Program-made: the position numbers and the translations under genes
Shown: one piece after another, positions 31,726 to 64,000 of the stretch
Numbering within the stretch: position 1 is the first letter of the stretch
How the letters are laid out: each line of letters begins with the position of its first letter
Assembly (NCBI GenBank): GCA_016218255.1
Contig: JACREN010000044.1
Span: 2,489 to 66,488 of the forward strand
Length of the DNA stretch: 64,000 bases
Reading direction: 5' to 3'
DNA from: Candidatus Gottesmanbacteria bacterium
Lineage (GTDB): Bacteria; Patescibacteriota; Microgenomatia; UBA10105; UBA927
The notes under the pieces: model-generated
The model's database searches: none
The model's input: the letters and a program-made list of their open reading frames with translations, nothing else
What the model was told of the DNA's origin: nothing

Positions 31726-32282
31726 ATAGATATTTCAGCTTTACACACAGGGCACATCTGCCCTACCCCCTTTTTCACGAGCTTTGCTCCACAAAGACAG
31801 ACATATCCATGCGCGCGGGCAGGATTTCCATATACCAGGCTATGTCGAGCAACATCTCTTGTCACTACTGACCCAGCGCCTATCATCGCCCATTCTCCGA
31901 TAGTTACCCCTGGAACGATAACGCTACCCGCTCCCACAGATGCACCTCGCTTCACCACCGTCTTGGTTACTACCCAATCCTTGACTCCCTTTGGTTTCTC
32001 TTTTGGTGTCACGGCACGGGGCACTTTATCATTCGCAAAACATACGTGAGGACCCACAAACACTCCGTCTTCTATAGTAACACCCACATAAATCGACACG
32101 TAATTACCTATCTTACAATTATTGCCAACTATAACATCATGATCAATATACACGCCTTTTGCGATAATGCAACTGTTGCCCAATCTCGCATGCTCGCGTA
32201 TTTGTGCGTGATGCCAAATTTTAGTTCTTTCTCCAATATGGGCATTTTTGCTTACCTCCGCAGTTGGGTGAATATATATCAT
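31722..32282 (-). CDS. Left-handed beta-helix (hexapeptide-repeat) N-acetyltransferase (PglD/WbpD-like) with a C-terminal Cys4 tail
   Basis: 186 aa with imperfect hexapeptide repeats, for example 'IGERTKI', 'IREHARLGNSCII' and 'VIVGNNCKIGNYVSI'. The C-terminus reads 'VCLCGAKLVKKGVGQMCPVCKAEISI'. Confidence 0.8.
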   Translation of the reverse strand: MIYIHPTAEVSKNAHIGERTKIWHHAQIREHARLGNSCIIAKGVYIDHDVIVGNNCKIGNYVSIYVGVTIEDGVFVGPHVCFANDKVPRAVTPKEKPKGVKDWVVTKTVVKRGASVGAGSVIVPGVTIGEWAMIGAGSVVTRDVARHSLVYGNPARAHGYVCLCGAKLVKKGVGQMCPVCKAEISI

Positions 32283-38434: not shown

Positions 38435-39118
38435 TCAGGTAAATCTGTATCGGATTAGTGTCCATAATGCGGCGATTCCATCTCTCCATGTCAGCTTCTT
38501 TCCTTCAGAAAATTTTCGTCCGTAATATGAAATAGGCACCTCATAGATCTGATAACCCGCCTTTAGAGTTTTTGCAGTAAATTCAGGCTCAAAATCGAAC
38601 CGCTTCGAACAAATGGTAATTCCCTCTAATACTTGACGGCGAAATACTTTATAGCCTGTTTCCATATCCGTAATATTTGTGTTATAAAGCACATTTGTCA
38701 TAAGAGTAACAAACTTATTACCCATCATATATAGATACATCGTGGACAAATGCGGCCCCAAAAATCGTGATCCATATACCACATCGACTCGAGCGTCATG
38801 GAACGGTTCCAATAGTTTCTCGTAGTCATCTGGGCTATATTCCAAATCCGCATCTTGAATAAGAATAATATCACCAATAGCCTCCACGAAGCCCAATACC
38901 AAGGCCGCACCCTTTCCATTATTGATAGGCGCGTGTATCACATCGCACCGCTTCTCCCATTTTTTTAATATCTCGCCCGTACCATCAGTCGATCCATCAT
39001 TCACTACAATGATTTGCTTCTTCCAGTCTGATAGTTTTTTTGAAAAAACCGCAGACAAAATTTTATCAATGGAAAACGCTTCGTTATAGACTGGTATAAT
39101 AATAGAAACTGTTTTCAT
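38435..39118 (-). CDS. Family-2 glycosyltransferase, DPM1-like polyprenol-phosphate sugar synthase (soluble form)
   Basis: 227 aa with 'VSIIIPVYNEAFSI', 'VVNDGSTDGT' and 'IQDADLEYSPDD'. Confidence 0.8.
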   Translation of the reverse strand: MKTVSIIIPVYNEAFSIDKILSAVFSKKLSDWKKQIIVVNDGSTDGTGEILKKWEKRCDVIHAPINNGKGAALVLGFVEAIGDIILIQDADLEYSPDDYEKLLEPFHDARVDVVYGSRFLGPHLSTMYLYMMGNKFVTLMTNVLYNTNITDMETGYKVFRRQVLEGITICSKRFDFEPEFTAKTLKAGYQIYEVPISYYGRKFSEGKKLTWRDGIAALWTLIRYRFT

Positions 39119-46745: not shown

Positions 46746-47860
46746 ATGTGCCTACCCAAAAAGCTGCGGACTGCCTGTGTCCCTAAAATATACGCAACCG
46801 GCAAAAACGGCAGCAAAAAACGGGACGAAACCACACCAAGAGAAAGAAATAGCCCATACAGCAATACCCACCAAACGAGAACGAATAAATAAGGGGAAAC
46901 CTGGAGTTTTTTCTTTAGGATAAAATAAATCAAAATCAAAGACAGCCCAGTGCCTATTGCCCAAGTTATCTGCCAGTCATCTGCGGGTATGACATCCATA
47001 TTCCCCCACCATGTTTGCCACTGATTGAAAAATACAAGCCGCCATACGGAAAAAGGGAACAATAATTTACTTTTCTGGTAGAGAATAATCCACTTCTGAA
47101 AGCCTAAAAAACTTATAAAAGAATATCCGTCAAGAAATGTCCTGGTGTATGAAACTACCAATACTCCGAGAGATACCGGCAACCAAAGAAACAATCGCCA
47201 TACTGATGAAATCCGCTTTTGAAAGATCAAAAATAATACGAAAGTAATACACAGAAGAAATGCCGGAAAATGCGTTTTGGTCGCCATAACAAGACCGAGA
47301 CATAATGCAGTAAACATAAAGCGCTGTTTTGGATATTCCACAATAAATACATAGAGAGAAAGCAATATGAACGGCAGTTGGATAATGTCCAGAAGCGGCG
47401 CGGTAGTCAGCTGGTTAAGAAATAAAGTATCCGATGAAAAAACAGCAATCGGGACGAGCGCCCATGCGGTTGACCGGAAAATCCTTTTCCCCAACAAAAA
47501 TAAACTGACGAGCGTAACGAGACCAAAAGGAATCGCAACAAATTTGTCATTTTTTAATATCGAGATCGACGCGGCGATAAAATATTTCCCGAGCGGCGTC
47601 GTCTCGGAATTTACCAATATGGGATCGACGCCGTGCAAATATGCTCCCGCTGCATAGCTAAATACCGTCTGATCCGGTATTATTGCCGGGTCTTTCGTTT
47701 TCCGGTATTGAGATTCATTAAAAACACGTTCAAAATCCTTGTAAATTCCCTCTGAATAATACGGATCAACGTAGGCACCGATACTTGGAAACAAAGTGGA
47801 ACCAACGCGGATTACGACATACCCGGCCAAAATGCACGATACCCAAAATGAACGCTTCAT
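46742..47860 (-). CDS. Short PMT/ArnT-like (GT39-type) membrane glycosyltransferase
   Basis: 372 aa. 'DQTVFSYAAGAYLHGVDPILVNSETTPLGKYFIAASI' resembles the PMT loop-1 region ('HPPLGK'). Confidence 0.5.
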   Translation of the reverse strand: MKRSFWVSCILAGYVVIRVGSTLFPSIGAYVDPYYSEGIYKDFERVFNESQYRKTKDPAIIPDQTVFSYAAGAYLHGVDPILVNSETTPLGKYFIAASISILKNDKFVAIPFGLVTLVSLFLLGKRIFRSTAWALVPIAVFSSDTLFLNQLTTAPLLDIIQLPFILLSLYVFIVEYPKQRFMFTALCLGLVMATKTHFPAFLLCITFVLFLIFQKRISSVWRLFLWLPVSLGVLVVSYTRTFLDGYSFISFLGFQKWIILYQKSKLLFPFSVWRLVFFNQWQTWWGNMDVIPADDWQITWAIGTGLSLILIYFILKKKLQVSPYLFVLVWWVLLYGLFLSLGVVSSRFLLPFLPVAYILGTQAVRSFLGRHI

Positions 47861-48372
47861 AATATCCGTTTTTGTTTCGCTTCAAAAAATATTTTTGTAA
47901 AATCCAAAAAAACCGGCTCCAGCTTCTCCGGTTTCCACACATATTGAGCAGGTACTTCTGTCTGTATTCCATCTAATGTTTTCAGATGCTTTTCCGAAGC
48001 TTCGCTGATTTTTTGCCGCAATTTGGAAACATTTTTTCCTTCTTTTTCTATCTCATGAAGAAGCCCGGGGAGGACAGTAAATTGCTCATTTGATCGCGTT
48101 AATGCATCGACTGCCAAAACATATTGCTGATATTCAAATAATGTTTTTGCTTCAACCAAATATTTATCCGATAGCTGTAAATGATACTGTAGCGACGCAA
48201 TAGATCCCCAATACCAGTATCGTTTCAACGAATCGGCTATACGGGATAGCAAGTAAAATTTACTTCCCGGCATTGACCCCGGATATGGCAATACATATTC
48301 TGCCCTCACGGTTGTCGTCCACAAAAACGCCGCAAAAACGAGTAATATATATAGAAAATATTGTTTTTTCAT
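47857..48372 (-). CDS. Small secreted protein, paralog of 21865..22449
   Basis: 171 aa. Signal peptide 'MKKQYFLYILLVFAAFLWTTTVRAEY', then 'VLPYPGSMPGSKFYLL'. Confidence 0.6.
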   Translation of the reverse strand: MKKQYFLYILLVFAAFLWTTTVRAEYVLPYPGSMPGSKFYLLSRIADSLKRYWYWGSIASLQYHLQLSDKYLVEAKTLFEYQQYVLAVDALTRSNEQFTVLPGLLHEIEKEGKNVSKLRQKISEASEKHLKTLDGIQTEVPAQYVWKPEKLEPVFLDFTKIFFEAKQKRIL

Positions 48373-49130
48373 TTTTGGCGTACACGATACTTTTGATACG
48401 CTATTGGATAATGCAGTGCCGAGAAAAGCGCGAATAAAAACCCATATATGCCATCGAGAAATCCTTTATGTCGTAAAAAAATAGAGAGAAACGTCTTTAC
48501 CGGCATAACTATTTCATATTGGATATAGGAAGCGATATTTTTTTTCTCGGCCACTCGAGCCAACTCATCAGCAGTCAACGACGTATATGCGTCAGCTTTT
48601 CTCCAGTAGTCTTTCATAGTTCGATAAGAATAATGCTCTAACGGTTCTTTCAGATATCCGACAGGACCTTCCACCACTATTTGTTCGTGGATATTTTTAG
48701 CGGGAAACCAACCCTTACCGCGCTTAAACAGACGCATCACATAATCAGGATATTGTCCGCCCTTATGAAGCCAATGTCCAAGAAAATAATTCCTTCGGGA
48801 AATATAATATCCGTTTTCTTTTGGATTACCGTCGATCATTTTAATGATCTCATTACGTAATTCATGCGTCACCACTTCATCGGCATCCAGCTGCAAAATC
48901 CAAATTCCGCTGCATGCATCCAATGCCTTCTGTTTATTTATGTGAAAAATCGGCGGGTTGGTCGTTTCAATGATTTTCGCCCCGAACGTCTTGGCTATGA
49001 GAACCGTATTGTCTCTCGACCCTCCATCAACAAGCACAATTTCATCCGCCCATCCGGACACCGACGCCAGAGAGCGCCCGATATGCGCTTCTTCATTAAA
49101 TGTTGCAATTGCAACAGAAAGTTTTTTCAT
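48369..49130 (-). CDS. Family-2 glycosyltransferase (small soluble GT-A)
   Basis: 253 aa with 'LSVAIATFNEEAHI', 'VLVDGGSRDNT' and 'LQLDADEVV'. Confidence 0.8.
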   Translation of the reverse strand: MKKLSVAIATFNEEAHIGRSLASVSGWADEIVLVDGGSRDNTVLIAKTFGAKIIETTNPPIFHINKQKALDACSGIWILQLDADEVVTHELRNEIIKMIDGNPKENGYYISRRNYFLGHWLHKGGQYPDYVMRLFKRGKGWFPAKNIHEQIVVEGPVGYLKEPLEHYSYRTMKDYWRKADAYTSLTADELARVAEKKNIASYIQYEIVMPVKTFLSIFLRHKGFLDGIYGFLFALFSALHYPIAYQKYRVRQK

Positions 49131-50722
49131 AATATGAGTAATATCGCTCCGACCACGCTTATGGCATTCGCCGCCTTTCGTAATTTCGTTTCTTGAAAAC
49201 GAACTTCGACCTGATGTTCCCCTGCCGGAACTTCAAACGTCATAAGCCCTCGCCATTCCGGATTCTGAAATTCTACAAAAACCGGCTTTCCGTCAACTGC
49301 CACTTCCCAACCCGGAAAATATAATGTATTTTCGACCAACTTCGCCTTCTGTGATGCAATCACACGATACCTATGGCGTGTCGTTGATCGGGATAATTCG
49401 GTTACGGTCACAAGCCCCTCGACAGCTTCGAGAGCCGCTTTGGACCGAGCCTCCATAAATCTTACAGACCAAATGGGGCTGCTTTCCCCTGTGTCAGTGG
49501 TCCCCTCATAGACACTAGTATAATAACTTTCCGGCTTTATACTATACGCTTGGGCGTGCCACATGGGAAACGTGAAGGCAAAACTCGCGAGTAGTACGAT
49601 ACCGCAAAACATTATTCTTGATGTTTTCCTTACCGATGACACGACCACTCCTCCCAAAGCAGATACAAAAAATACCGTAAGGGTTAATAATCTCCAAGGA
49701 AACTGAAACTTCTGCAAAATAGTAACCTGCTGCCAAATGCCGGACGACCAACCAATCATAAGAAATATTGACAATGCCAGCGATATGAATAAGGGTCCAA
49801 TCATCCACCGTATCACGTTCTTTTTCGATCTGAAAAAGGTCACGGCACTCGCCATAATCACAAACCACTGAGCCATACCCAATTCCTTAGGCAATTCATT
49901 CCCTCCGCCATAATTCCAAGGCGTAAAGAAAAATTTTTGTATTGGCACAAACCGGTCCGAAAAATCACCCCTGGTTACAATATCCCGCAGTGTGTATTTT
50001 CCTTCAAAAAATGCCGGAACCCAAAAAAACGATGCCAGCATAAATCCGATCGCAATAGACCAGACCCCAAAAACGATAAACCAACGGCGTTGGGTGGTCT
50101 CAAAAAAGTTCAAATATACCCCATAGAGAAATATCACAGGAAAAAACATTAAACTTATGGCGTTATGCGAGAGAAGAAGCCCGGCAGTAGAAGCCGCGAC
50201 CACCATACCCCACCGACGATTGCCAGAACGCGCCAGCTTTAAAAGTCCCCAGAGCACGAGCGGAAGAAAGACAAACGCAACATGTTCCCCTATGGCTCCG
50301 CGCACGTACAAATCCACAAAACGATACGGAGCAAAGCCATACAGCACTGACGCGGCTAGTCCAGCAATGCTGCCCCATTGAGACCCTGCCCATACGAACA
50401 TTGCGATCATGCTTATTATATACGCCGCTGCAAACACCAGTTTGGTCGCATCAACGAATGAAAACCCTACAAAATGAAAAAACGACGCGACATATGATGG
50501 CAACGGATATAAAAACATGAGAATCGGATGTCCGTATCCCCAATTAAGATTTCCTGCCCAGCGAGGAACAATATGCCCTTCGGAAAGAGACTGATAAAAA
50601 TTCGCTATACGCGTTACATGGTCCTGTCCGTCATGCGTAACAGGTAAACCGGTATGCAATAAATCCCAAAGAGGGAGTAGTGAAAATACTATGATAACGA
50701 ATAGCCACCAACGTGTTTTCAT
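49127..50722 (-). CDS. Polytopic membrane protein of the 'HDG' family, paralog
   Basis: 531 aa with 'PVTHDGQDHVTRIANF...RWAGNLNWGYGHPILMFLYPLPSYV'. Confidence 0.5.
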   Translation of the reverse strand: MKTRWWLFVIIVFSLLPLWDLLHTGLPVTHDGQDHVTRIANFYQSLSEGHIVPRWAGNLNWGYGHPILMFLYPLPSYVASFFHFVGFSFVDATKLVFAAAYIISMIAMFVWAGSQWGSIAGLAASVLYGFAPYRFVDLYVRGAIGEHVAFVFLPLVLWGLLKLARSGNRRWGMVVAASTAGLLLSHNAISLMFFPVIFLYGVYLNFFETTQRRWFIVFGVWSIAIGFMLASFFWVPAFFEGKYTLRDIVTRGDFSDRFVPIQKFFFTPWNYGGGNELPKELGMAQWFVIMASAVTFFRSKKNVIRWMIGPLFISLALSIFLMIGWSSGIWQQVTILQKFQFPWRLLTLTVFFVSALGGVVVSSVRKTSRIMFCGIVLLASFAFTFPMWHAQAYSIKPESYYTSVYEGTTDTGESSPIWSVRFMEARSKAALEAVEGLVTVTELSRSTTRHRYRVIASQKAKLVENTLYFPGWEVAVDGKPVFVEFQNPEWRGLMTFEVPAGEHQVEVRFQETKLRKAANAISVVGAILLIL

Positions 50723-52245
50723 GGTTCTACGGAAACTGCCGATAATGCAGGCGTACCGTCAAGCAAATAAAACCTTGCTGCAGTAACGGCGTTATCAGGA
50801 AAATCCTTCACATTCCCAATGTATAGCGTCCGCGACGCAGGCTTTTCCTGTTTCCATATGATCGGCCGGAAATCATATTTACCAATACTATGCGTTTCCG
50901 CATACCCACCACTCTTCGTTCCTCCTAGGCGCTGATACATGCCCGGATCAAATCGCGTGTAATACAAATACATCATATAGGACTGGTATGTCTGGTCGGC
51001 ATTGGAAAATACAATTTTTCCGTATTGATCTTCCCTAGCCACTGCATACGGAATAGCTTTCGATAAGGCATATAAAAAAGACCGCGACTGTTCTTTAGGA
51101 AAAACAACGTAGTAATTTCGGTAGAAAGATTGCAAACTCACAGCAATCAAGAATATAAAAACTACTAGACTCAGTGTGTTGATTCTCCTGAGAGCTGCAT
51201 ACACAGAGAGCAAACCAAATGCAGTAAAGATTTGCCATGTGGGCAAAAACGCGTATGAACGCATGGCATGAGGCGTTTGCGTAGCAACAGATGCGGGTAG
51301 CGGCCCAAGAACAAACCATAAAAATACAAGTTGTTTTCCGCGCGTATTAATATCGCGGTGGAAAAGAAACGCAATAATTCCGATCAGAATAAATGGAAGT
51401 TCCCAAACATATAAAAACCCCATATTCGGTACCTTAAATGATTCTCTACCCGAGTTAGTAAAAAGCCATTTTATCTTGAAGTGGGATACATAATTTTCAA
51501 CAAATATTTTACCGTTCGTTATCTTTTTTTGAGTCAAATCAAATGCACTTGTCCCCTGAAACCGTACCAGAGCCGAGGGCGAAAAAATGGACCAAAAAAT
51601 AAAAATAAGAAATGGGGTAAAAACGAGAAGCGGGACAACAAATTTCTTATATGATGCTCTATATATAGCGAGGAGTCCGAGTCCAAACAACGGCACAAAA
51701 ATTTGGCCGGCATAATAACTTATGATTGAAAGAGCAAAAAAAAGCAGAGCGGTAAGCAGCCGATCTTTCAAAAAAAACATCACTCCGAGAACAAGGAACG
51801 AAAGATACGCGTTGGATTCATGACCCAATCGGGAAATATAAATATGCCAGGGACTAATTGTCAAAAGAAACGAAACGAGTAGTCCGACGTTTTGTGCATT
51901 TGCTGTTTGTTTTGAAAAAAGATGATATACGATTTGATATGTTGCCCATACTGTAATGATCGACAAAATAACCGCAGGCAGCCTCACTGCCGTTACCTGA
52001 AGATTAAAAATCGTAACGAACGGCACAACAAGCAGTAAGTACGTTGATCTGCGCCAGTCATCGTACGCGCGCTGTGATATGAGGGGAAATACCCCGTACT
52101 CATCTACGCCGATTTTCGAAACGGAATAGGCGTTGTATCCTATGGACGCTTCGTCCATGGAAGCGCTCGGTGGCACGTTTCCCAAATTCCATAATCTCAA
52201 AAAGGCAGCCAAAGTCACTATCGCAATCAATAATAATTTTTTCAT
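50719..52245 (-). CDS. ArnT/PMT-family (GT39/GT83) GT-C glycosyltransferase
   Basis: 'PPSASMDEASIGYNAYS' and 'VRLPAVILSIITVWATY'. The ORF track extends to 52353. The ATG at 52245 ('MKKLLLIAIV') gives an ATGA overlap with the SDR gene ending at 52242. Confidence 0.65.
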   Translation of the reverse strand: MKKLLLIAIVTLAAFLRLWNLGNVPPSASMDEASIGYNAYSVSKIGVDEYGVFPLISQRAYDDWRRSTYLLLVVPFVTIFNLQVTAVRLPAVILSIITVWATYQIVYHLFSKQTANAQNVGLLVSFLLTISPWHIYISRLGHESNAYLSFLVLGVMFFLKDRLLTALLFFALSIISYYAGQIFVPLFGLGLLAIYRASYKKFVVPLLVFTPFLIFIFWSIFSPSALVRFQGTSAFDLTQKKITNGKIFVENYVSHFKIKWLFTNSGRESFKVPNMGFLYVWELPFILIGIIAFLFHRDINTRGKQLVFLWFVLGPLPASVATQTPHAMRSYAFLPTWQIFTAFGLLSVYAALRRINTLSLVVFIFLIAVSLQSFYRNYYVVFPKEQSRSFLYALSKAIPYAVAREDQYGKIVFSNADQTYQSYMMYLYYTRFDPGMYQRLGGTKSGGYAETHSIGKYDFRPIIWKQEKPASRTLYIGNVKDFPDNAVTAARFYLLDGTPALSAVSVEP

Positions 52246-53306
52246 GAAAGTTTTTTTAAGAGCGTAAATATCCCCATTTTCGGCAAGCTCCGATTTGCCG
52301 AGATGTTGCTCGATCCGATCTTTGTAAATTCTTTTTTGTGCTGGATATACCATTCGTAATTTTCAACGAATGAATCTATATTCGTTTTTCGAGGCTTCCA
52401 TCTCAACTTTTTTTTGATTTTGGTCGTGTCTGCATACATCGATTGGCCTATCATCGAATACTGATAAACCCCCAAAGGGGAAACATTGAGCCGATCCAGA
52501 ATGGCAAGTGCGACTAACGCAGGAAATTTTGGCAATGAAATGATTTTCGACGAGCTTTTTGCATACGCTATAACGCTCTGATATAACTCTCGAAGCGTCA
52601 TAACGCCGTCCCCACCAATAGTATAGATATCAAAACCAGAAATACTTGCCGCTTTCTCAAGAGCAGTGCACACATCTCCCGCATCGACAAACTGGTACTT
52701 ATTCAATCCGTCACCCAATACATAGACATTGCGATTTTCCGATATAAATTCAAACAGAATAGCCTGAAGCCCCAATCTGCCAATACCTGAAATCACCGGA
52801 CAGCGGAATATCTGTATATTCATACGGTTTTTGTATTTCTCAAGTTCCTCTTCGGCCTGCTTCTTGCTTTTTCCGTATGTTTCCACTGGAAGAGTATGGG
52901 TGTTCTCTGTCACAGGCAAATCTCTGGGCACACCATAAGTCACATTGCTGGAGGTAAATATGAACGATTTTACACCGGTTCTTGCCGATTCAGCAGCCAA
53001 AAATTTTGTCCCTTCAACATTCGTTTTCCATATCATCTCATCGGAATCTGCCTTGTTTGGCATAGCGGATGCTAAATGAAAGACAATTGCAAACGGCCCA
53101 TACCTATCAAAACATGCATGGATATCGCTTTGGGAAAGAATGTTCCCCTTGCAAAAGGATGCAGTCTTGGGGTACTTCTTCGTCCCATCACGATCTAGCT
53201 TGTCGAATATGACAACATCATATCCACCTATACGCGATAAATACTGAACAAGATATGAACCCAAAAAACCCTCTCCGCCGGTGATAAGAACACGTTTATT
53301 ATTCAT
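52242..53306 (-). CDS. NAD-dependent epimerase/dehydratase (extended SDR)
   Basis: 354 aa with 'KRVLITGGEGFLGSYLVQYL' and 'YGKSK' (YxxxK). Confidence 0.75.
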   Translation of the reverse strand: MNNKRVLITGGEGFLGSYLVQYLSRIGGYDVVIFDKLDRDGTKKYPKTASFCKGNILSQSDIHACFDRYGPFAIVFHLASAMPNKADSDEMIWKTNVEGTKFLAAESARTGVKSFIFTSSNVTYGVPRDLPVTENTHTLPVETYGKSKKQAEEELEKYKNRMNIQIFRCPVISGIGRLGLQAILFEFISENRNVYVLGDGLNKYQFVDAGDVCTALEKAASISGFDIYTIGGDGVMTLRELYQSVIAYAKSSSKIISLPKFPALVALAILDRLNVSPLGVYQYSMIGQSMYADTTKIKKKLRWKPRKTNIDSFVENYEWYIQHKKEFTKIGSSNISANRSLPKMGIFTLLKKLS

Positions 53307-53312
53307 GCATGG

Positions 53313-54935
53313 TCAGTCGGCAATTTTTATAGCTTCTTTCCCGTCCAGATAACGAATCGTCATGAGGCCGGGACCCGGAATTTCACCCGGCGTGCCAATG
53401 TACAGCACCGTACCGTCTTTAACGTCCGTGTCCCAATGAATGGGACGGAATTCGTATATATCAAATGTATTTCGCACCTCTGCAAATCCGCCGGACGAAG
53501 TACCTCCTTTAGCCAGATACTTGACCGGATCATACTTCAAAAAATAGAGAAAAAACATATGCGGCTGCTCAAGTTTTGTGGAAACAACAATTTTTTTATA
53601 TCTGTCTTTCTGTATCTTTGTGTACTCGACGGCCTGAGCGTATCCATACTGCCATGATGAAGAATATTCCTCATTCAAGTGGCCGAAATACATATGGAGA
53701 TAATACAGAACATTCACAGCAAAAAGCGCGGTAACAAAAAGACGAAGAATATAATCTTTATATTTAAAATAACGCTTATAAAAATTTATCAGCCCCACTG
53801 CCGTAAATATCTGAAATGTCGGTAAAAATACGAGCGTCCGTATGGCATGAGGCAATTCAGTAGTTGGTGATGCCGCGATCGGTGCGATCAAAAACCATCC
53901 GAATATGATGCGTGCTTGTCTGCCTCTTTGCCGCGCCAATATAAACATGCCCCACAACAGGAACGGCAACTCTGCTAAATACAATAACCCCATATCAGGA
54001 GCATGATGACGCGCGTTATCCCCGGTCAAAAACAGCCATCGCAGTGAGTAATGAGAGAGATATCCACTTGTCAATGTTTTTATCCAGACGATACGCCGGT
54101 TATCGAACATGACTCCCCACGGATTATTCGCTTTCTGATCTTCTTCAAGTTTCCATACGCTTCTTGCCAATAATCCGGTCTGATCTGCCAGAGAACTGGT
54201 CCCGCGCAGCCGCATCAGCGTATTCTGATTCATAAATACCGGCACGAGCGGCGCCACAGTCATCAATCCTACGATTGCCGCTATCACTACGTTTACCCGC
54301 ATCCGAAAAAGTTCCTTTCGGTAATTCAAGACGAGAATCACCAAGAGCAATGGGAGAAATATCCGCTCACTATGATATGCATAAAATCCCAAACCAAACA
54401 AAAATGCAGACACCGATAACCACCGTCTGCTTAAAACGCCTTTCAAAAAAAATACTACGGCCCAAATGTTTATCGTGACACCGATATTTGCTTCAAAAGC
54501 AATACGGGAAAACTGAATGTGCCAGGGTGAAATAGCCAACAACAACATTGCTGTTACCGGAATACCAAATAAAGACTCCTTATTTGCACGTTTTAACAAT
54601 TCTTGTGTTAGGAAATAGGTTCCGATGACCGCAAGTATTCCTGCAATCACCGATGGAAGCCGAACAGCCCATGTATTTAACCCAAACAAGGCAACCGAAG
54701 GGACGGTTAAATACATATATAGTGGTGGCTTATAGTCGTCGAAAGATCGAAGCGTGAGCGGAAACCACGTACCGTACTCATCGCGGCCGGTTTTCAGCAC
54801 CGAATATGCATTGTATCCAAGCGCTGCTTCATCCCAGTCAGGACTTGGTGGCACTTGCCCAAGCTGCCATAATCGCAGCCAAGCAGCAACTAAAACGATG
54901 ATAAAGATACAAAAATAGGAAAATTTCTTGCTCAT
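53313..54935 (-). CDS. ArnT/PMT-family (GT39/GT83) GT-C glycosyltransferase
   Basis: 540 aa with 'PPSPDWDEAALGYNAYSVLKTGRDEYG' and 'AVRLPSVIAGILAVIGTY'. It is a tandem paralog of the flanking genes. Confidence 0.65.
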   Translation of the reverse strand: MSKKFSYFCIFIIVLVAAWLRLWQLGQVPPSPDWDEAALGYNAYSVLKTGRDEYGTWFPLTLRSFDDYKPPLYMYLTVPSVALFGLNTWAVRLPSVIAGILAVIGTYFLTQELLKRANKESLFGIPVTAMLLLAISPWHIQFSRIAFEANIGVTINIWAVVFFLKGVLSRRWLSVSAFLFGLGFYAYHSERIFLPLLLVILVLNYRKELFRMRVNVVIAAIVGLMTVAPLVPVFMNQNTLMRLRGTSSLADQTGLLARSVWKLEEDQKANNPWGVMFDNRRIVWIKTLTSGYLSHYSLRWLFLTGDNARHHAPDMGLLYLAELPFLLWGMFILARQRGRQARIIFGWFLIAPIAASPTTELPHAIRTLVFLPTFQIFTAVGLINFYKRYFKYKDYILRLFVTALFAVNVLYYLHMYFGHLNEEYSSSWQYGYAQAVEYTKIQKDRYKKIVVSTKLEQPHMFFLYFLKYDPVKYLAKGGTSSGGFAEVRNTFDIYEFRPIHWDTDVKDGTVLYIGTPGEIPGPGLMTIRYLDGKEAIKIAD

Positions 54936-56554
54936 AATCCCTGATCAAACAACACAAGCGCTGTTTTTCCGTTTAACAATCGAACCGTGGTGATGACCCG
55001 CGCAGAATCCGGTAAATACTGCGGTTCAAGAACATACAATATCCTTGGTTCCATTTTGTCGATCCCCTGCCGGACAAACCGGTATTTACCCAACCGGTGC
55101 GGGTTATAGAACCCGGCCGCATCGAATGCCCCATCCATTGTTTTTCTGTATTCTCCAGGGTCTAATCGTTCATAAAACGCTATATACATATGAGGCCGAC
55201 CGATATTTTCCGTCATAACGATAGCGTCGTATTGATTTTTAATAGGTTCGATTGCACGAATTGCTTCACGATACCCGTACTGCCATTCACCTGAATACTC
55301 CACTACATAATGAGTAAAATAGTTATGCCAATAATACGAAAAGCTAGCAGAATACAGAAACGCTATTGCGCCCAATAAAATAAATTTTTTCTTGGCCAGT
55401 ATAGGATACCGAATAGCGGATAGCAATCCACACGCGATAAATATCTGCCAAACTGGCAGGCTGTTTTCAATGCGGAGTGCATGTGGCGTTTCACGAGCCG
55501 TTGCCGCAGGAATTATTGCGCCTATCAGCCAAGCAGCCAGAAACCATGCCGTGCGTCGGTCTCGCACAAAAAGCCAATATATCCCTGCAATCAATAACGG
55601 CAACTCAATAATATGCAACTGTCCCACATCCTGGATAGAAAATTTCGGGTTCCCGTCGCCACGAATAAACAGAAAACTCGGTTCAAAGTGATCCAGCAGA
55701 TGGAGTAAATAGCTTTTTGTATAGCCGATGCGACGATTATGAAATATTTTAGACCACCAACTGTTTCCATCTGTCTCAATCCGGTGATTTGCAGTCTGCA
55801 CGACGGAAAAGTCAGTAAAAATATTTACCTCTGCAAACCGCAGCCGCGCCTGTGGCGAAATTAGGTATGGCACGATAGGAAACAAAAATACAAAAGCAAC
55901 GATTACTCCAGCAACGAATTGTTTTGTGTGGCGACGCACCTCTTTCCAACAGTAAATAATGAGTAGCACCCCTAAAATAGGTGCAAAGTATCGAGCGCTA
56001 TTAAATGTGTAAATACTCGCAACAAACGGCAACCACGCGACAATAAATAAATGGTTCCTTTCTCGAGCTTTTAATACACACCAAATTCCTAAAACAACAA
56101 AAAATAACGCGGTGTTTGCTTCGAATCCCGCTCGAGACAACTGCATATGCCACGGAGAAATAGCAAGTAAAAATGAAGCAAGAAGTGATAAACGGATCAA
56201 GTGAGGTGATTTGTTAAACAATTCTCTAACAAGGAAATAAGTCAGTAAAACGGTCAAAGTTCCGGCAACAACTGATGGCAAACGTACTGCGAGTTCACTA
56301 AGCCCAAATAATGCAACAAACGGAACAGTAAGATATACTGGCAAGACCGGTTTGTAATCTCCATACGCGACAAATGCATCCAGCGGGAAAAGACGCCCAA
56401 ATTCATCTCTACCGGTCTTCAAAATGCTATATGCGTTGTATCCTATGGAAACTTCATCCCAAGATAAAGACGGAGGTATTTGTGCTACCTTATAAAACCT
56501 GAGGAAAAATGCCAGAACCACTGTCAGTGCCAAGACCGCATAGGTTTTTTTCAT
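54932..56554 (-). CDS. ArnT/PMT-family (GT39/GT83) GT-C glycosyltransferase
   Basis: 540 aa with 'PPSLSWDEVSIGYNAYSILKTGRDEFG' and 'AVRLPSVVAGTLTVLLTY'. Confidence 0.65.
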   Translation of the reverse strand: MKKTYAVLALTVVLAFFLRFYKVAQIPPSLSWDEVSIGYNAYSILKTGRDEFGRLFPLDAFVAYGDYKPVLPVYLTVPFVALFGLSELAVRLPSVVAGTLTVLLTYFLVRELFNKSPHLIRLSLLASFLLAISPWHMQLSRAGFEANTALFFVVLGIWCVLKARERNHLFIVAWLPFVASIYTFNSARYFAPILGVLLIIYCWKEVRRHTKQFVAGVIVAFVFLFPIVPYLISPQARLRFAEVNIFTDFSVVQTANHRIETDGNSWWSKIFHNRRIGYTKSYLLHLLDHFEPSFLFIRGDGNPKFSIQDVGQLHIIELPLLIAGIYWLFVRDRRTAWFLAAWLIGAIIPAATARETPHALRIENSLPVWQIFIACGLLSAIRYPILAKKKFILLGAIAFLYSASFSYYWHNYFTHYVVEYSGEWQYGYREAIRAIEPIKNQYDAIVMTENIGRPHMYIAFYERLDPGEYRKTMDGAFDAAGFYNPHRLGKYRFVRQGIDKMEPRILYVLEPQYLPDSARVITTVRLLNGKTALVLFDQGL

Positions 56555-57813
56555 GTTTCCTTTTCATCGAGATCTTTTAATATTCCCAAAGCGAATATGC
56601 TGGAAAGATATCCTACGTGACTGTTATTGAAATACCTGCTCGCCCACCACCAGACAAATAAAAACGCACCATATCCGATTAACAATCGGGACATTGTCCC
56701 TCGCTTCCAAAGTGCTCCTAGGCTAACGCCAAGTACCGGTATTGCCAGCACAATCTGCCAAACAAAAAAAGGATAGTATGCATGTATATCCCGGACAACA
56801 CCGGCCTCTCGAAGCACCATGCCCAACCCATACCCGGAGACAGGATAGGAAAATGCCGAACCTCCGCTTAAATATAAAATCGTACTTTCAACGAAAGCAC
56901 GATAATCCCACAAAAGAAACGGGCCAGCCAACACAAAAAGAACACCCGTTGCCGGTACTGCGATCTTGACAAAAAACGGCGTAATTTTCTTTAGCGATAT
57001 CCACGCATATATGCCATAAAAAGGAAGTGCCAGCCACACCGTCTGTTTTGACAGGATAGCCAAACTGAATAACAACGAAGACCAGACATACCGTTTCTTT
57101 TCTAGCGAATAGAGCGAACACATGAGCCAGAAAAGGGCAAATATATCGCTCCTGCCTTCAATAAGATAATCAACAGTTGCCGGCGACAACGCAGTTAAAG
57201 CAACGGCAATGAACGCGATTGACTTATTCCTGAACCAAAAAAGCAAAAGTGCTAAAACACCAAACGCGCTGAAAAGAAGCTGCATCCGTCCGTCAAAAAA
57301 TCCAAATAGGGGTATGGCTACCGCATAAAACGGCAATGCAGACAACAAATACCACGGCGGCATGACAAAATGGTAAAGTGCCGGGTTTACGGCTTCTTTA
57401 CCTTCTTCTGCATAATGCCAGCTTTCCAAAGGTGTTCCAAAATATGTTTCCTTATACGGATTTTTGCCCGAAATGAGATACCGCATTGCTGCTTCCTGCT
57501 GGAGGATAATATCGTGCACCCCGTATACCGGAGCAGTTTTGCTCCGGTCCACCATAGCCGTCACCATCGTACCGCCCAATACGATCATAACCGTCACAAT
57601 AAGCAAGACCAGTTTTATCTTTAGTACCCGTATTTCTTTTCCGATAAACCCGGGATACATAGAAATGAGAACATTTATAAGAAGCACGAAAAATAATATG
57701 CCGAATAACCAATATGGTGTACCCGTAACCGGAAAAATTCTATACCGCATCACCACCGGCACCGAGAGAGAGAAAAGAAGCAGCGCGTCCAATGCCAGAA
57801 GATTCATATGCAC
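56551..57813 (-). CDS. Polytopic membrane protein, GT87/DUF2029-like GT-C candidate
   Basis: 420 aa with 'VHDIILQQEAAMRYLISGKNPY' and 'LAILSKQTVWLALPFY'. Confidence 0.45.
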   Translation of the reverse strand: MHMNLLALDALLLFSLSVPVVMRYRIFPVTGTPYWLFGILFFVLLINVLISMYPGFIGKEIRVLKIKLVLLIVTVMIVLGGTMVTAMVDRSKTAPVYGVHDIILQQEAAMRYLISGKNPYKETYFGTPLESWHYAEEGKEAVNPALYHFVMPPWYLLSALPFYAVAIPLFGFFDGRMQLLFSAFGVLALLLFWFRNKSIAFIAVALTALSPATVDYLIEGRSDIFALFWLMCSLYSLEKKRYVWSSLLFSLAILSKQTVWLALPFYGIYAWISLKKITPFFVKIAVPATGVLFVLAGPFLLWDYRAFVESTILYLSGGSAFSYPVSGYGLGMVLREAGVVRDIHAYYPFFVWQIVLAIPVLGVSLGALWKRGTMSRLLIGYGAFLFVWWWASRYFNNSHVGYLSSIFALGILKDLDEKET

Positions 57814-59297
57814 TATCGATTGTACACGTAGATGCGAGCATTTTCCACGTCTGACGTTTTATCTAATTGCCAACCGGTTAGATCCAATACCGGATGTTCA
57901 CCGCCGCAAAATCGTTTGAAGCAAACAATGTCAAGTCTCGTTTTCTCCTTCATATCCGACTCACCTGGACATATTTCTGATTCGCAGACCAAAAATAATC
58001 GCCGGTAATTCGGGTCGCTCATTATCACGGGCTCATTGTGCCGCCATAGGAAGAAATACCGGTAGTGCAAATCAGAAAATGATCGGGATGCAAACAACGC
58101 AAATGAATACGGTGTAGCACCGGACTCATCTCGTATAACGTCAACGACATGGCCAATGCGGGATATATCCCGGGGTCCAGCAGTAAATACATCTGTCTGG
58201 TGGATACTCCAAACAAACAATACTATCGAGATGATAATCAAACCTTTTTTAGGGATAGCCGATTCAAGCGCTTGAAGTACACCACCCATAAATACAAACG
58301 GCAAGGGAAGCATAAAATGCAGATAATGGTCAAATACCGTCCCCTTATATAGGGATATAGCGGCGATGCCGCCGACATACCATACTCCCCAAAAAAATGA
58401 CCAAAACGATCGCTTCCAAAACAGAGCAACGACGGCAAACAATTGAATTGCTATCAGCATATTACGGCTGACGCCAGGAATCATCGTTCCAAATAATCGA
58501 CTCGAGTAATCAATCATCTGTTCCCACATCGGAGCTACAGTAGCCGCCCCGTTTCCACCAGAAGTCAGCATGGTAAAAGCGATTTCCCTCACATCCGCCC
58601 ATGCATGGCTCATTTCATAGACAAAAAACGGCGTAAGCACGCCGAAAAAGCCAATCACACCTCCCACTGCTCCCAGAGCAAGCGGCCAAATACGGCAGCG
58701 CTTGTTTAATGCCATGGCAAGAATCAAAATCAAACTTAACCCGACAAAGATGACATTGGGGTAATGAAGCTGTACTAGAATTCCTACGACTATTCCCAAA
58801 GGCAACAACGAAAACGGAAACTGTTTCTCGTAGGCACGGTAAGCCAGATAAAGGAAAAAAATTACAAAGAGAGGCACTATGGTGGGTTCCCAAAGCGTCC
58901 GGTCAGCTCGAACGATAGACGGAGAAACTGCATACAGCCCGGCTACTGCAATTCCTATCCAGGATCCATACAGTATGGATGCAAACCGGTACAATAATAA
59001 AACAGCTAGAATCCCAAGCATCGCCATAAAAATGCTTGGAATGATGGGATGAAAACCCCCGAAGACAAACGGCAGCCCGATAATATAGTAAAAGGCCGGA
59101 CCCAAAAATTGTCCCGTAAGGACTGGTGGTCCAACTAAGGGCAATTGCCGGACTTTCCAAGCTTCATAAATGATCATTCCCGTCCGGCCTTGATCACCCA
59201 GGAACTCCGTTAAGTCGTTTATACGCCACAGGCGAAAAAACCCCGCAAAGACAAGAAGCACCAATATAAAAACCTTGGTATAATGAACCTTGCTCAT
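57813..59297 (-). CDS. Polytopic membrane protein, PMT_2-like GT-C candidate
   Basis: 494 aa with 'FLGDQGRTGMIIYEAWKVRQLPLVGPPVLTG'. The ATG at 59297 shares a CATG palindrome with the divergent gene start. Confidence 0.4.
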   Translation of the reverse strand: MSKVHYTKVFILVLLVFAGFFRLWRINDLTEFLGDQGRTGMIIYEAWKVRQLPLVGPPVLTGQFLGPAFYYIIGLPFVFGGFHPIIPSIFMAMLGILAVLLLYRFASILYGSWIGIAVAGLYAVSPSIVRADRTLWEPTIVPLFVIFFLYLAYRAYEKQFPFSLLPLGIVVGILVQLHYPNVIFVGLSLILILAMALNKRCRIWPLALGAVGGVIGFFGVLTPFFVYEMSHAWADVREIAFTMLTSGGNGAATVAPMWEQMIDYSSRLFGTMIPGVSRNMLIAIQLFAVVALFWKRSFWSFFWGVWYVGGIAAISLYKGTVFDHYLHFMLPLPFVFMGGVLQALESAIPKKGLIIISIVLFVWSIHQTDVFTAGPRDISRIGHVVDVIRDESGATPYSFALFASRSFSDLHYRYFFLWRHNEPVIMSDPNYRRLFLVCESEICPGESDMKEKTRLDIVCFKRFCGGEHPVLDLTGWQLDKTSDVENARIYVYNR

Positions 59298-60915: not shown

Positions 60916-63230
60916 AACGCTTTTTCCCATTGTTTGTGTTGCTAGCGATTGTAGCAATCTTTTTTTATAAAACGTTTCTTTATGGTCTCATACCGTTCCC
61001 CGGTGATTTATTGCTTGCGGAATATAAACCGTGGCAATCCTATTCTTTTGCCGGATACGTTCCAGGCTCTATTCCAAACAAAGCACAGTACCCCGACACA
61101 ATCCGGCAATTATATCCATGGCGGACGCTCGCAACAAATGAACTAAGGTCCGGAAGAATGCCCCTGTGGAATCCATATAATTTCTCCGGTACCCCGCTTT
61201 TGGCAAATTTTCAATCCGCAGCATTTTATCCGCCCAACATTCTCTATGTTGTATTTCCCCAAACTGTGGCCTGGAGCATGCTAGTTATCCTGCAACCCTT
61301 ACTCTCTCTCCTGTTCACGTATTGGTATATTAGAAAAATTGACGCTTCGCTACTGGCCGCAATACTTGCAGGCATTTCCTATGCATTTTCTCTATTTGCC
61401 ATTGTATGGCTACAATATAATTCCATCGGGCATGTCATGATTTGGTTACCGCTCATGCTTCTTGCTATCGAATCGCTCAAGCGTCAGCGCACACGATCCT
61501 GGTTTGCACTACTTGTAGCCGCTGAAGCAAGTGCGCTTCTTGCCGGCCATCCACAACTTGGAGGCTATCTGCTTTTATTCGTTCTTGCATATACTTTTTT
61601 TCTGGCGAGGCCATTGATCAAAAACGTTACACTGTCTATGCTGTTTGCATTGGGAATCGCTGCTATCCAACTCATACCCGGTATGGAGCTCGTCTGGTAC
61701 GCCGCCAGAAGTTCACATGAATTTTCCCTTATCTTTCAGAAAATACTTATCCAACCGCAGCAACTATTCATGACAATTATCCCAAATCTTTTTGGCCACC
61801 CTGCAACACGCACCTATTGGCCGCAAGACACTTTTATCGGCAAAGTCACCTATGTCGGTCTCGTCCCGCTCTTTTTCCTTTTGGCAGCATTCCGGATTAA
61901 ATCGCGACACATAAAATTTTTCGGGATCTCTAGTCTCATTGTTCTGGTTCTAGTAACTGCCAATCCGATCACCTTTATCCTCTACAAATTTAATCTCCCA
62001 CTATTTTCCTCAAGCAGTCCGACGCTTATGGAATTTCTGCTTGCTTTTTCACTTGCCGTCATAACGTCTTTAGGCTTAGATGGGTGGATACAAGAAAAAC
62101 ACTCCATCGGCAAACTCGCCCATCGGTCCCTGAGCGTCATTATTTTCTTCATCATCATATGGTTAGGCTTCCGGTCTATTGAACACTCCCGCACTGCCAT
62201 GAATGCAATTCTTTATTCAGGCGTACTGGCAACAATTATACTCTCCGGATTTTTCATAGCAATAACGCGTAAAAAATTTATGATTCCTGTCGTACTACTT
62301 CTTATAGCACTGCATACAACGGATCTCTTTATCCAATTTCAAAAATTCAATCCTTTTGTTCCTGCGTCTTTTGTTTTCCCCCAAACCTCAATAATCCAGT
62401 ATCTTAAAGAGCATGCAGGTAACAATCGTTTTTGGGGTTATGGCACCGCAAGTATCCAGACAAATATAGCAACCCAATATCAGATCTATTCAACCGATGG
62501 ATACGACCCACTCTATCCAAAATGGTATGGTGAACTTCTCAATGCTTCAAAAAACGGCCAAATACTCAAAAAATTTACGAACGATACAAGGTCTGATGCA
62601 ATTTTAGCGCAGGGCTTTGGAGAATTTGACCTGCCAAATAATCAATACCGCTTACGCATGCTTGACGCACTTAGTGTGAAATATATACTCGACAGACCCG
62701 AGAATGGCAGCACTCAAAATACACTGCCGCAAGATCGTTTTCAGCCTGTTGCAGATATTGATGGATGGAAAGTATATGAAAATCTTAAAGCCGCTCCACG
62801 CGCATTTTTGGTTTCCGACTTTGCTACGTACGCCTCACCCAAAGAATTCGAAGACCATTTTTTCTCTAAAGAATTTAACCCTTCAACGGCTATCTTGTTA
62901 GAAAAACCGATCAATGAACGTCTTGGACAAATCAACGGCACATCCGTACAAATCAAAAAATATCAACCAAATGAAGTATCACTCGATCTTGTTTCCAACG
63001 GAAATCTGCTCTATCTTTCCGATACCTATTATCCTGGATGGAAAGCATTCATAGATGAAGCAAATACACCCATCCTGAAAGCAAACTATGCCTTCAGGGC
63101 AATATACGTACCCCGGGGCGCACACACAGTTCGCTTTATATTTGATCCACTATCTTTCAAAATTGGGCTCGTCGTCAGCGTGATAAGTTTGGCTGCTTCA
63201 ATTATATTCCTAAAGAAATATGAAGCATAA
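60912..63230 (+). CDS. YfhO-like GT-C-type large membrane protein
   Basis: 'GDLLLAEYKPW...LWNPYNFSGTPLLANFQSAAFYPPNIL' resembles the YfhO-family N-terminal region. It has many TM helices and a C-terminal soluble domain. The ORF track start is at 60753. The ATG at 60912 ('MKRFFPLFVLL') gives an ATGA overlap with the preceding gene. Confidence 0.5.
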   Translation: MKRFFPLFVLLAIVAIFFYKTFLYGLIPFPGDLLLAEYKPWQSYSFAGYVPGSIPNKAQYPDTIRQLYPWRTLATNELRSGRMPLWNPYNFSGTPLLANFQSAAFYPPNILYVVFPQTVAWSMLVILQPLLSLLFTYWYIRKIDASLLAAILAGISYAFSLFAIVWLQYNSIGHVMIWLPLMLLAIESLKRQRTRSWFALLVAAEASALLAGHPQLGGYLLLFVLAYTFFLARPLIKNVTLSMLFALGIAAIQLIPGMELVWYAARSSHEFSLIFQKILIQPQQLFMTIIPNLFGHPATRTYWPQDTFIGKVTYVGLVPLFFLLAAFRIKSRHIKFFGISSLIVLVLVTANPITFILYKFNLPLFSSSSPTLMEFLLAFSLAVITSLGLDGWIQEKHSIGKLAHRSLSVIIFFIIIWLGFRSIEHSRTAMNAILYSGVLATIILSGFFIAITRKKFMIPVVLLLIALHTTDLFIQFQKFNPFVPASFVFPQTSIIQYLKEHAGNNRFWGYGTASIQTNIATQYQIYSTDGYDPLYPKWYGELLNASKNGQILKKFTNDTRSDAILAQGFGEFDLPNNQYRLRMLDALSVKYILDRPENGSTQNTLPQDRFQPVADIDGWKVYENLKAAPRAFLVSDFATYASPKEFEDHFFSKEFNPSTAILLEKPINERLGQINGTSVQIKKYQPNEVSLDLVSNGNLLYLSDTYYPGWKAFIDEANTPILKANYAFRAIYVPRGAHTVRFIFDPLSFKIGLVVSVISLAASIIFLKKYEA

Positions 63231-64000
63231 ACAAGTATTTCTTCTTGTACTGATCATTTTCCTGGCCGCTTTCCTTCGCCTCTTTCGAGTGAACGAAATC
63301 CCCCCAGGAGTCAATCGGGATGAAGCATCTATAGGATTTACTGCGTATTCTCTCATGCAAACCGGCAACGATGAATACGGAAAACCATTTCCGCTGTCTT
63401 TCCAGTCATTCGGGGACTGGAAACTACCTCTCTATATCTACACAACAATCCCGTTCGTCAAGCTATTCGGCCTAAATGAGCTTGCCGTGCGGTTGCCATC
63501 CGTTATTGCAGGAACGCTTACCGTGTTTCTGACATATTTTTTAGTAAAGGAGCTTTGTAAAGCTTACAACCGTTATATTGCGCTTCTAAGCGCACTTCTT
63601 CTCGCTATATCGCCTTGGCATATTCATCTTTCCCGAGTCGAATCAGAATCCAATGTTGCAGTTTTCCTCACGGTAAGCGCCTTACTTCTTTTCCTTAAGG
63701 GCCTAAAGAATACACCCGTACTCCTTGGGCTCAGTTTCCCAATCTTTGCTCTTACCTACTATACCTATCACGGCAACCATGTATTTACCACACTCCTTCT
63801 TATTAGTCTTTGTGCTATATACCACAAAGATATCCCTCGAAAGCTGCCTGTTTTTGTTGGCGCAATTTTGAGTGTCGTTCTTATAGTATTTATCCTGTCT
63901 CAAACTCTGCTTGGAGCTGACAAAACAAAAATTTCCGGCATAAGCATATTTGGGAGTCCAAATGTCATTCATGAAAATATTGAGCTCCCTCGCAACCGTT
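63220..64000 (+). CDS. ArnT/PMT-family GT-C glycosyltransferase (5' part; runs off the window)
   Basis: ATG at 63220. The product begins 'MKHKQVFLLVLIIFLAAFLRLFRVNEIPPGVNRDEASIGFTAYSLMQTGNDEYGKPFPL...AVRLPSVIAGTLTVFLTYF', collinear with the three paralogs at 50719..56554. It is not in the ORF track because it is open-ended. Confidence 0.65.
   Translation, partial: MKHKQVFLLVLIIFLAAFLRLFRVNEIPPGVNRDEASIGFTAYSLMQTGNDEYGKPFPLSFQSFGDWKLPLYIYTTIPFVKLFGLNELAVRLPSVIAGTLTVFLTYFLVKELCKAYNRYIALLSALLLAISPWHIHLSRVESESNVAVFLTVSALLLFLKGLKNTPVLLGLSFPIFALTYYTYHGNHVFTTLLLISLCAIYHKDIPRKLPVFVGAILSVVLIVFILSQTLLGADKTKISGISIFGSPNVIHENIELPRNR

Follow-up and report, generated by a model that had tools for sequence, protein, structure and literature searches.

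Four paralogous genes for polytopic membrane proteins, termed here c1 to c4, and an interposed gene for a short-chain dehydrogenase/reductase (SDR) are found in a 64,000-nucleotide stretch of DNA, hereafter the window, from a Candidatus Gottesmanbacteria bacterium, a groundwater organism with a tiny genome. Three of the paralogs lie on the minus strand: c1 (50719..52245), which encodes 508 amino acids, and c2 (53313..54935) and c3 (54932..56554), which encode 540 each. The fourth, c4, is on the plus strand, with its first 260 codons falling within the window (63220..64000). A preliminary description of this DNA had reported a tandem triplet of ~540 amino acid genes and a further copy at 63220, related to ArnT and the protein O-mannosyltransferases (PMTs), sharing a 'WDEA-x-GYNAYS' loop motif, arising from an old duplication and having an SDR epimerase gene (52242..53306) between the first two copies. 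The SDR gene is present at that position on the minus strand, encoding a 354 amino acid protein of the extended type (Pfam Epimerase E-value 2e-34), and the four intact genes are indeed collinear paralogs: c1-c2, c1-c3 and c2-c3 are each 36% identical in BLASTP comparisons, and the visible part of c4 shares 41-42% identity with the other three, with E-values ranging from 1e-35 to 1e-100 (4.5e-91 for c1 against c2). The length given for the triplet holds for c2 and c3 and requires correction for c1, the start of which is the ATG at 52245; this overlaps the SDR stop codon as ATGA and matches the start point of c2, c3, c4 and all orthologs, while the longer, 544 amino acid open reading frame (ORF) beginning at 52353 would share 112 nt with the SDR gene.

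None of the four reading frames contains a frameshift or an internal stop. The c4 gene is truncated by the end of the window rather than degenerate, its orthologs being 528-561 amino acids long and the visible part being 72% identical to a full-length, 536 amino acid ortholog at the same place after a YfhO-family gene in another Gottesmanbacteria locus (L001). At the DNA level, likeness among c1, c2 and c3 is limited to 64 nt encoding the loop motif (52093-52156, 54771-54834 and 56396-56459 respectively, all on the minus strand), where identity is 73-75%. The lack of DNA similarity outside these stretches excludes a recent duplication, gene conversion or an assembly artefact.

The history of the family was investigated using c2 as an anchor in 80 species-representative genomes, in which every ORF of the region was classified, and through an alignment of 221 members, falling into six lineages, from around 85 related Microgenomates loci. 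Each of the four copies has a positional one-to-one ortholog in Gottesman-, Curtiss-, Levy-, Woese- and Roizmanbacteria, those of c2, the most conserved lineage, being 47-76% identical across the 80 genomes. In a neighbour-joining tree, sequences cluster by gene position and not by genome, and identity in the large alignment is 45-56% within lineages as against 28-39% between them. The duplications therefore predate the divergence of these five groups, such that the antiquity first proposed for them is strongly supported by the sequence comparisons. The family is also broad, with 2,716 cluster representatives at the 50% identity level detected at E<=1e-30.

Many of the contigs carrying this Microgenomates-type cluster (L007, L009, L012-L014 and others) are titled 'uncultured Gammaproteobacteria bacterium' in third-party annotation assemblies, and those of L069 and L083 bear the titles 'Pacearchaeota archaeon' and 'Limnocylindrales', one each; mislabelling or mis-binning is the probable cause.

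The loop motifs of the four copies read MDEASIGYNAYS, WDEAALGYNAYS, WDEVSIGYNAYS and RDEASIGFTAYS, exactly as originally quoted. A second shared motif, AVRLPSV(I/V)AG, which had been ascribed to all four, is restricted to c2-c4, with c1 reading AVRLPAVILS. The first of these motifs corresponds to the Asp-Glu motif of loop 1, comprising in c2 D35 and E36, G40 followed by xNAYS, then D52 and E53. A pair of acidic residues (D-E or D-D) within extracytoplasmic loop 1 is the catalytic hallmark of the type C glycosyltransferases (GT-Cs) (PMC8698208, PMC7801869), with equivalents at D55/E56 in both ArnT and Mycobacterium tuberculosis Pmt, D77/E78 in yeast Pmt1 and D113/E114 in Streptomyces coelicolor Pmt (PMC7801869, PMC8698208). 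In an AlphaFold2 model of c2 (pLDDT 84, pTM 0.87), D35-E36 directly follow the first transmembrane (TM) segment, where the first juxtamembrane helix begins (helix 3-22, loop, helix 34-49). Across the alignment, 32 positions hold an identical residue conserved at >=85% in each of the six lineages, among them D35, E36, D52, E53, D67, R92, W138, H139, R144, E148, H363 and R366 in c2 numbering. Since these core residues are retained in every lineage, all four copies look catalytically competent, and the same retention indicates an ancient duplication in which no copy has become a pseudogene. The suggestion that the genes reflect an assembly or duplication artefact, or are decaying, can accordingly be considered refuted, its residual probability being negligible: the protein identities of 36-42% are far from those of near-identical copies, the ORFs are intact, and the same arrangement recurs in more than 80 independent assemblies.

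Superimposed on this common core are 12 lineage-specific fixed positions (42, 66, 69, 70, 147, 187, 242, 246, 300, 311, 358 and 428 in c2 numbering), and over c2 residues 181-300 there is no consensus common to the lineages. The preliminary description had proposed that the copies had sub-functionalised to different donors or acceptors; this is not proven, and these patterns fit it, as does the association of the SDR with one c1 subtype discussed below.

Domain searches associate these proteins with the GT-Cs to differing degrees. The Pfam PMT_2 family (PF13231; gathering cut-off 26.1 bits) was matched by c2 (53.4 bits, E-value 4.5e-14), c3 (45.5 bits, 1.2e-11) and c4 (38.4 bits, 2e-9), and the PMT family (PF02366) was matched above its cut-off by c3 (32 bits, 1.2e-7) and c4 (38.9 bits, 9e-10) only, over the N-terminal 210 residues; c1 had no Pfam match at E<=0.01. 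Among NCBIfam models, these proteins matched Agl23 (TIGR03663) alone, with scores of 24-46 bits that fall below the cut-off of 126 bits, and there was no match to an ArnT model. The c2 protein is 100% identical to an NCBI entry labelled 'glycosyltransferase family 39 protein', and a Foldseek search with its model returned matches of the GT-C fold. A search of the PDB with the c2 sequence alone gave just a spurious TetR match (E-value 0.089), and was discarded. On the basis of the modelled polytopic fold, which STT3, PMT, ArnT and the ALG enzymes have in common, and of the acidic loop-1 motif, c1-c4 are assigned to the GT-C superfamily, and the likeness to ArnT and PMTs originally suggested is borne out as regards fold and Pfam clan. 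None of them is orthologous to ArnT or to a classical PMT.

The closest structural parallel is with ArnT (GT83; undecaprenyl-phosphate-L-Ara4N:lipid A transferase; 5ezm and 5f15), which resembles c1-c4 in its GT-C fold, its length (~540-580 amino acids), the Asp-Glu pair of loop 1, a basic residue within K-P-P where TM2 begins, and a C-terminal domain that is small and extracytoplasmic. Of all solved proteins, ArnT alone was reached by the family profile (5ezm; E-value 0.019, spanning TM2-TM7, with KPP aligned to the KPP of ArnT), and it gave the best Foldseek TM-scores, of 0.55-0.57. Such similarities might indicate that each paralog adds a different sugar or amino sugar to a membrane lipid or an anchor resembling lipoteichoic acid, thereby tuning surface charge, and a separate Arn-like module comprising a formyltransferase, a GT2 enzyme, an aminotransferase and a PMT_2 protein is found at 10499-14486. 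However, identity to ArnT is only 13%, the C-terminal domain of c1-c4 is structurally unmatched, the Arn-like module contains a separate GT-C (13104-14486) that BLASTP places outside the c1-c4 family, and a dozen GT-Cs in a fixed order exceeds what charge tuning would need. To our knowledge, moreover, lipid A, the acceptor of ArnT, is not to be expected in bacteria of the Candidate Phyla Radiation (CPR), such as this organism. A role in lipid modification is therefore considered improbable.

A still smaller probability attaches to the proposal that these enzymes behave like the oligosaccharyltransferases (OSTs) STT3, AglB and PglB, moving pre-assembled oligosaccharides from polyprenyl-diphosphate carriers onto protein en bloc. 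Some c2 orthologs match the Pfam STT3 family, although these matches are confined to positions 58-241 of the 405 in the profile, a generic TM module at the N terminus. Directly after the last TM helix, c2 (residues 428-440; 53613-53651) and c3 carry the sequence WQYGY, the placement of which recalls the WWDYG of OSTs; the corresponding sequences are WG..Y in c4 and FQYAL in c1, and WQYGY itself lacks the Asp. The C-terminal extracytoplasmic domain is ~115 residues in length, whereas those of OSTs are several hundred residues long, and its model had no detectable structural match, to OSTs or otherwise. Hence neither the WWDYG motif nor the C-terminal domain expected of a GT66 enzyme was found.

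The arrangement of the genes in related genomes differs from that implied by the term 'tandem triplet'. All three paralogs are present, but they are better regarded as a fixed c3-c2 pair adjoining a variable slot, which in the window is occupied by the SDR gene and c1. The c3 gene is immediately upstream of c2 in all 81 loci in which the upstream region is present, and the two overlap by 4 nt in the window; judged by this synteny and overlap, c3 and c2 are an invariant, translationally coupled core pair. The slot, by contrast with this fixed pair, lies between c2 and the next conserved genes, encoding a PTPS_related-type GT-C and a GT2 enzyme, and was found in 13 complete layouts: it can be empty, or contain a distant, ~420 amino acid PMT_2-like gene, c1 genes of subtypes c1B or c1C, an SDR gene with c1A, or combinations thereof.

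About half of the complete loci have a gene of the c1 type, the accessory member of the family, and the lineage consists of three subtypes that are 38-45% identical to one another. The window copy is a c1A, sharing 82% identity with that of L017 and 66% with that of L005, a Curtissbacteria locus, and only 45% with its positional counterpart in L001, which has the closest c2, c3 and c4 among the first contigs examined. A large extracytoplasmic loop that is a constant 85 residues in 85 of 85 c2 sequences has been shortened independently in c1A, c1B and c1C, with 24 residues deleted in the window c1. The idea that the SDR gene was a private insertion accompanying a fast evolving c1 was rejected on finding the same SDR and c1A pair in Curtissbacteria and 12 other loci, and an identity of 82% for c1A in the closest relative.

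The link between the SDR and c1A is strict. An SDR gene directly followed by c1A was found in 14 of 14 loci, 11 of them c2-anchored (including the window) and three identified independently using the SDR as anchor, and no c1A lacking the SDR was observed among the loci examined. The SDR is of the NAD-dependent epimerase/reductase type, with an NAD-binding site of GGEGFLG, a catalytic YGKSK and TSSN in place of the TDE of 4,6-dehydratases. Its best PDB relatives are GalE 4-epimerases (1.6e-20), and the GalE model TIGR01179 is matched at 93.7 bits, relative to a cut-off of 262.3, over the N-terminal half only. The C terminus (52242-52300 in the window) is a conserved basic and hydrophobic tail that conforms to S-x-N-[RK]-S-[LV]-P-K-M-G-x-[FL]-x-[LW]-[LV]-K-x-x-S in 11 of 11 orthologs, and could constitute an element for docking to the membrane or to a partner. 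A strong amphipathic helix in this tail was considered and found unconvincing, the hydrophobic moment being just 0.34-0.42.

Spearman rank correlations were calculated between the pairwise identities of these genes in 13 cassette-bearing loci, the pairs being non-independent. Whilst c2 correlates strongly with c3 (rho = 0.90) and with the downstream GT-C (0.83), its correlations with c1A (0.35) and the SDR (0.43) are lower than that between the SDR and c1A (0.65), which suggests that the SDR and c1A form a cassette with a history partly independent of the core genes. The strict tie between the SDR and a single c1 subtype points to a difference in the donor sugar.

The core pair is embedded in an extensive array of related functions. 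Immediately upstream of c3, and overlapping its start by 4 nt, is a gene for a GT87/ALG3-like polytopic protein (56551-57813, minus strand), preceded by one for a distant PMT_2 GT-C (57813-59297, minus strand); syntenic orthologs of this pair occur in L001, L004-L006 and the majority of L007-L086. Downstream, the slot is closed by genes for a PTPS_related/YfhO-like GT-C (49127-50722) and a GT2 enzyme with GmaR as its best PDB relative (48369-49130), both on the minus strand and both found past the slot in nearly all loci. The genes from 59297 downwards are tightly packed, with overlaps of 1-4 nt, consistent with a single long operon, and in all about a dozen GT-Cs of different families (GT87/MptA-like, ALG3-like, YfhO and PTPS_related) are encoded in it. 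A divergent arm on the plus strand comprises genes for a PTPS_related-like GT-C, termed PTb (59290-60915), a YfhO-family GT-C (60912-63230; Pfam YfhO E-value 6e-25, with weak NCBIfam matches to PgfM1 and PgfM2) and finally c4, an order that is conserved among relatives. The assignments of these genes come from Pfam. Further away on the minus strand, a 227 amino acid GT2 enzyme (38435..39118) has dolichol-phosphate-mannose synthase (5mlz, 5e-17), ArnC (8e-15) and GtrB (5ekp) as its closest PDB relatives and orthologs of 63-70% identity in many related clusters; on this similarity it is the best candidate for loading polyprenyl-phosphate donors.

The function proposed for c1-c4, to which we would assign an even chance, is that they are inverting GT-Cs that use polyprenyl-monophosphate sugars to build an envelope glycopolymer outside the membrane. 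A carrier would be loaded with sugar in the cytoplasm by a GT2 enzyme resembling dolichol-phosphate-mannose synthase (DPMS), ArnC or GtrB, such as that at 38435-39118, and then flipped, whereupon each GT-C would transfer the sugar from the polyprenyl-monophosphate carrier to an acceptor with inversion. D35 and E36 of c2 may position or activate the acceptor, and the carrier phosphate may be held by H363, R366 and a basic residue at c2 position 69 (K, but R in c1); the role of ArnT K85, like that of the Asp-Glu motif, is drawn from the literature (PMC8698208, PMC7801869). The c3 and c2 enzymes would perform two obligatory steps, and c4 would work in the divergent sub-operon with the YfhO-type enzyme. 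The SDR most likely makes a special sugar, epimerised or reduced, that c1A transfers, in which case the cassette would add an optional, lineage-variable decoration. The presence nearby of the DPMS/ArnC/GtrB-like GT2 enzyme and of several nucleotide-sugar modules supports this proposal.

The likeliest acceptor is a growing envelope glycopolymer (a lipoglycan, for example, or a polysaccharide of the wall) and not an individual protein, by analogy with the synthesis of lipomannan, lipoarabinomannan and arabinogalactan in mycobacteria and corynebacteria (PimE, MptA/B/C, EmbA/B/C, AftA-D, Ppm1 and DprE1/E2). In these systems, GT-Cs likewise act serially on polyprenyl-phosphate sugars outside the membrane and a dedicated epimerase system makes a special lipid-linked donor, and proteins similar to MptA_B and GT87 are also encoded in the operon described here; nevertheless, c1-c4 are not orthologous to those enzymes in sequence, and the organism here belongs to the CPR and has a ~1 Mb genome. 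There are also similarities to the Gtr systems, comprising the GtrA flippase, the GT2 enzyme GtrB and the GT-C GtrX, in that a DPMS/ArnC/GtrB-like GT2 enzyme accompanies GT-Cs and the variable GT-C module suggests variation akin to that of serotypes. Here, however, the variable module is an SDR plus a GT-C inside a large fixed array.

Several observations weigh against this proposal. No match to a GtrA-type flippase was detected in any scanned ORF of the 64 kb window, and there is no identifiable acceptor for c1-c4. The core GT2 enzyme (48369-49130) resembles GmaR, which glycosylates protein, and not a polyprenyl-phosphate-sugar synthase, whilst the SDR falls far below every NCBIfam equivalog cut-off. 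In addition, the fold search cannot separate users of monophosphate sugars (ArnT, PMT) from users of diphosphate oligosaccharides (STT3, PglB), and the identity correlations, using non-independent pairs, are no test of lateral transfer.

The resemblance of the core GT2 enzyme to the flagellin glycosyltransferase GmaR instead favours an alternative that we regard as possible, if rather unlikely, namely that c1-c4 are PMT- or Pgf-like protein O-glycosyltransferases. These would move a monosaccharide from polyprenyl phosphate to Ser or Thr residues in proteins that are secreted or lie on the cell surface (for instance pilins, S-layer proteins or disordered segments rich in Ser and Thr), with the paralogs differing in their specificity for proteins or sites; the invariant, translationally coupled c3-c2 pair would suit a heterodimer like that of yeast Pmt1-Pmt2. 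There are bacterial precedents: a 556 amino acid GT39 enzyme of Caldicellulosiruptor bescii glycosylates secreted cellulases (PMC6151902), and the Streptococcus mutans pgf operon (pgfS-pgfM1-pgfE-pgfM2), in which a GalE-type 4-epimerase gene lies between those of two GT-C paralogs and is accompanied by a GT2 gene, O-glycosylates surface proteins (PMC12041528). As proposed here, transfer in the Pgf system is extracytoplasmic and from a lipid-linked sugar. By contrast with the GT39 PMTs (yeast Pmt1-Pmt2 and Pmt4, actinobacterial Pmt and C. bescii Cbes_1864), however, the MIR and PMT_4TMC domains of the classical enzymes were not matched in Pfam by any of the four copies, and c1 falls outside all Pfam models. 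Bacteria that O-mannosylate proteins normally need one PMT, as in the characterised systems, rather than four paralogs within an operon encoding a dozen different GT-C families, and no candidate Ser/Thr-rich acceptor is encoded within the window. Nor is the array a Pgf-like operon: the Pgf GT-Cs are members of the YfhO family, not PMT_2, and their system consists of four genes instead of a fixed array of ~14, with the PgfM1 and PgfM2 models matched solely by the YfhO gene of the window, at 20 bits (E-value 1e-4) against cut-offs of 1400-1500.

A more ambitious variant of the glycopolymer proposal is that c3 and c2 form an obligate hetero-oligomer, as Pmt1 and Pmt2 do, at the heart of a Microgenomates-specific, extracytoplasmic production line of ~14 GT-Cs building a previously unknown envelope glycopolymer, and that the slot with its 13 layouts and laterally mobile SDR and c1A cassette is a serotype-like generator of diversity. 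This combination is speculative, and we consider it doubtful; were it true, variation of the slot would tune the cell surface for attachment to hosts or evasion of phages in these ultra-small, probably episymbiotic, bacteria.

Scans of the ORFs against Pfam and other families indicate that the whole of the 64 kb window is devoted to envelope-glycan biosynthesis, with ~22 polytopic membrane proteins predicted alongside several GT2 and GT4 enzymes, the Arn-like module, two amino-sugar nucleotide pathways and a carbamoyltransferase. The amino-sugar pathways, at 16833-20987 and 29262-33355, both have a CapD/PseB-like dehydratase in addition to a UDP-GlcNAc 2-epimerase, and in the second these are joined by an acetyltransferase, a cupin and a DegT aminotransferase; a further set of aminotransferase, GT2, SDR and nucleotidyltransferase genes, with the carbamoyltransferase, is found at 222-3998 and 27492-29273. 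It is on account of these two pathways and the further sugar-nucleotide sets that the entire 64 kb is assigned to glycan biosynthesis. The Arn-like module resembles ArnA-FT/ArnC/ArnB/ArnT, despite being in a host not expected to have lipid A, and consists of a formyltransferase domain protein (10499-11332, plus strand), a 240 amino acid GT2 enzyme (11294-12016), a DegT-type aminotransferase (12013-13107) and the 460 amino acid PMT_2 GT-C (13104-14486).

Other features of the region deserve comment. A second paralog family, of three PTPS_related/YfhO-like polytopic proteins of ~530 amino acids (41213-42790, 49127-50722 and 59290-60915), is interleaved with c1-c4; its members are 30-33% identical to one another and each has its own conserved ortholog in relatives. 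At the junction between the two arms (59290-59297), the divergent starts are back-to-back or overlapping, with ATG 59297 on the minus strand and either TTG 59290 or ATG 59296 on the plus strand, and in relatives the same junction varies between a 13 nt gap and a 2 nt overlap. As there is essentially no intergenic DNA here, both promoters must sit within coding sequence. A scan for promoters and terminators found fewer promoter-like sites than in shuffled sequence, and no signal was drawn from it. Small DUF5667 proteins with one N-terminal TM segment are encoded at 21865-22449 (plus strand) and 47857-48372 (minus strand), each adjoining a GT2 gene, the latter being kept within the GT-C operon in most related genomes. 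Three consecutive large ORFs at 3999-10458 encode polytopic proteins of 705, 980 and 468 amino acids, with ~8-12 predicted TM segments each and no Pfam match at E<=0.001. Finally, the ortholog of the 537 amino acid gene at 44036-45649 is split in L001 (18269-19782, GenBank) into ORFs of 255 and 242 amino acids; it is intact, at 537 amino acids, in L003 (17079-18692), an ENA assembly from another sample of the same project with an identical c2, such that the split reflects either a frameshift or an assembly error.

As enzymes, c1-c4 are of an ordinary type, being uncharacterised members of a well-known superfamily. What is added is the fixed pairing of c3 with c2, the variable slot and the SDR and c1A cassette dedicated to it, and the heavy investment in GT-Cs by a lineage with genomes of ~1 Mb; a search of the literature found no comparable GT-C cluster in CPR bacteria or Microgenomates, nor any description of the core pair, slot or cassette. 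For annotation, at least four groups of orthologs, ancient and not interchangeable, are concealed by the blanket label of 'glycosyltransferase family 39', and c1 escapes Pfam entirely. The envelope biology of the CPR, or Patescibacteria, is almost without experimental characterisation, yet at least 64 kb of such a genome is given over here to glycan synthesis. The universal core pair, the exchangeable c1 module and its dedicated SDR thus give concrete points of entry for testing how these cells construct and vary a surface that presumably mediates their contact with hosts and phages.

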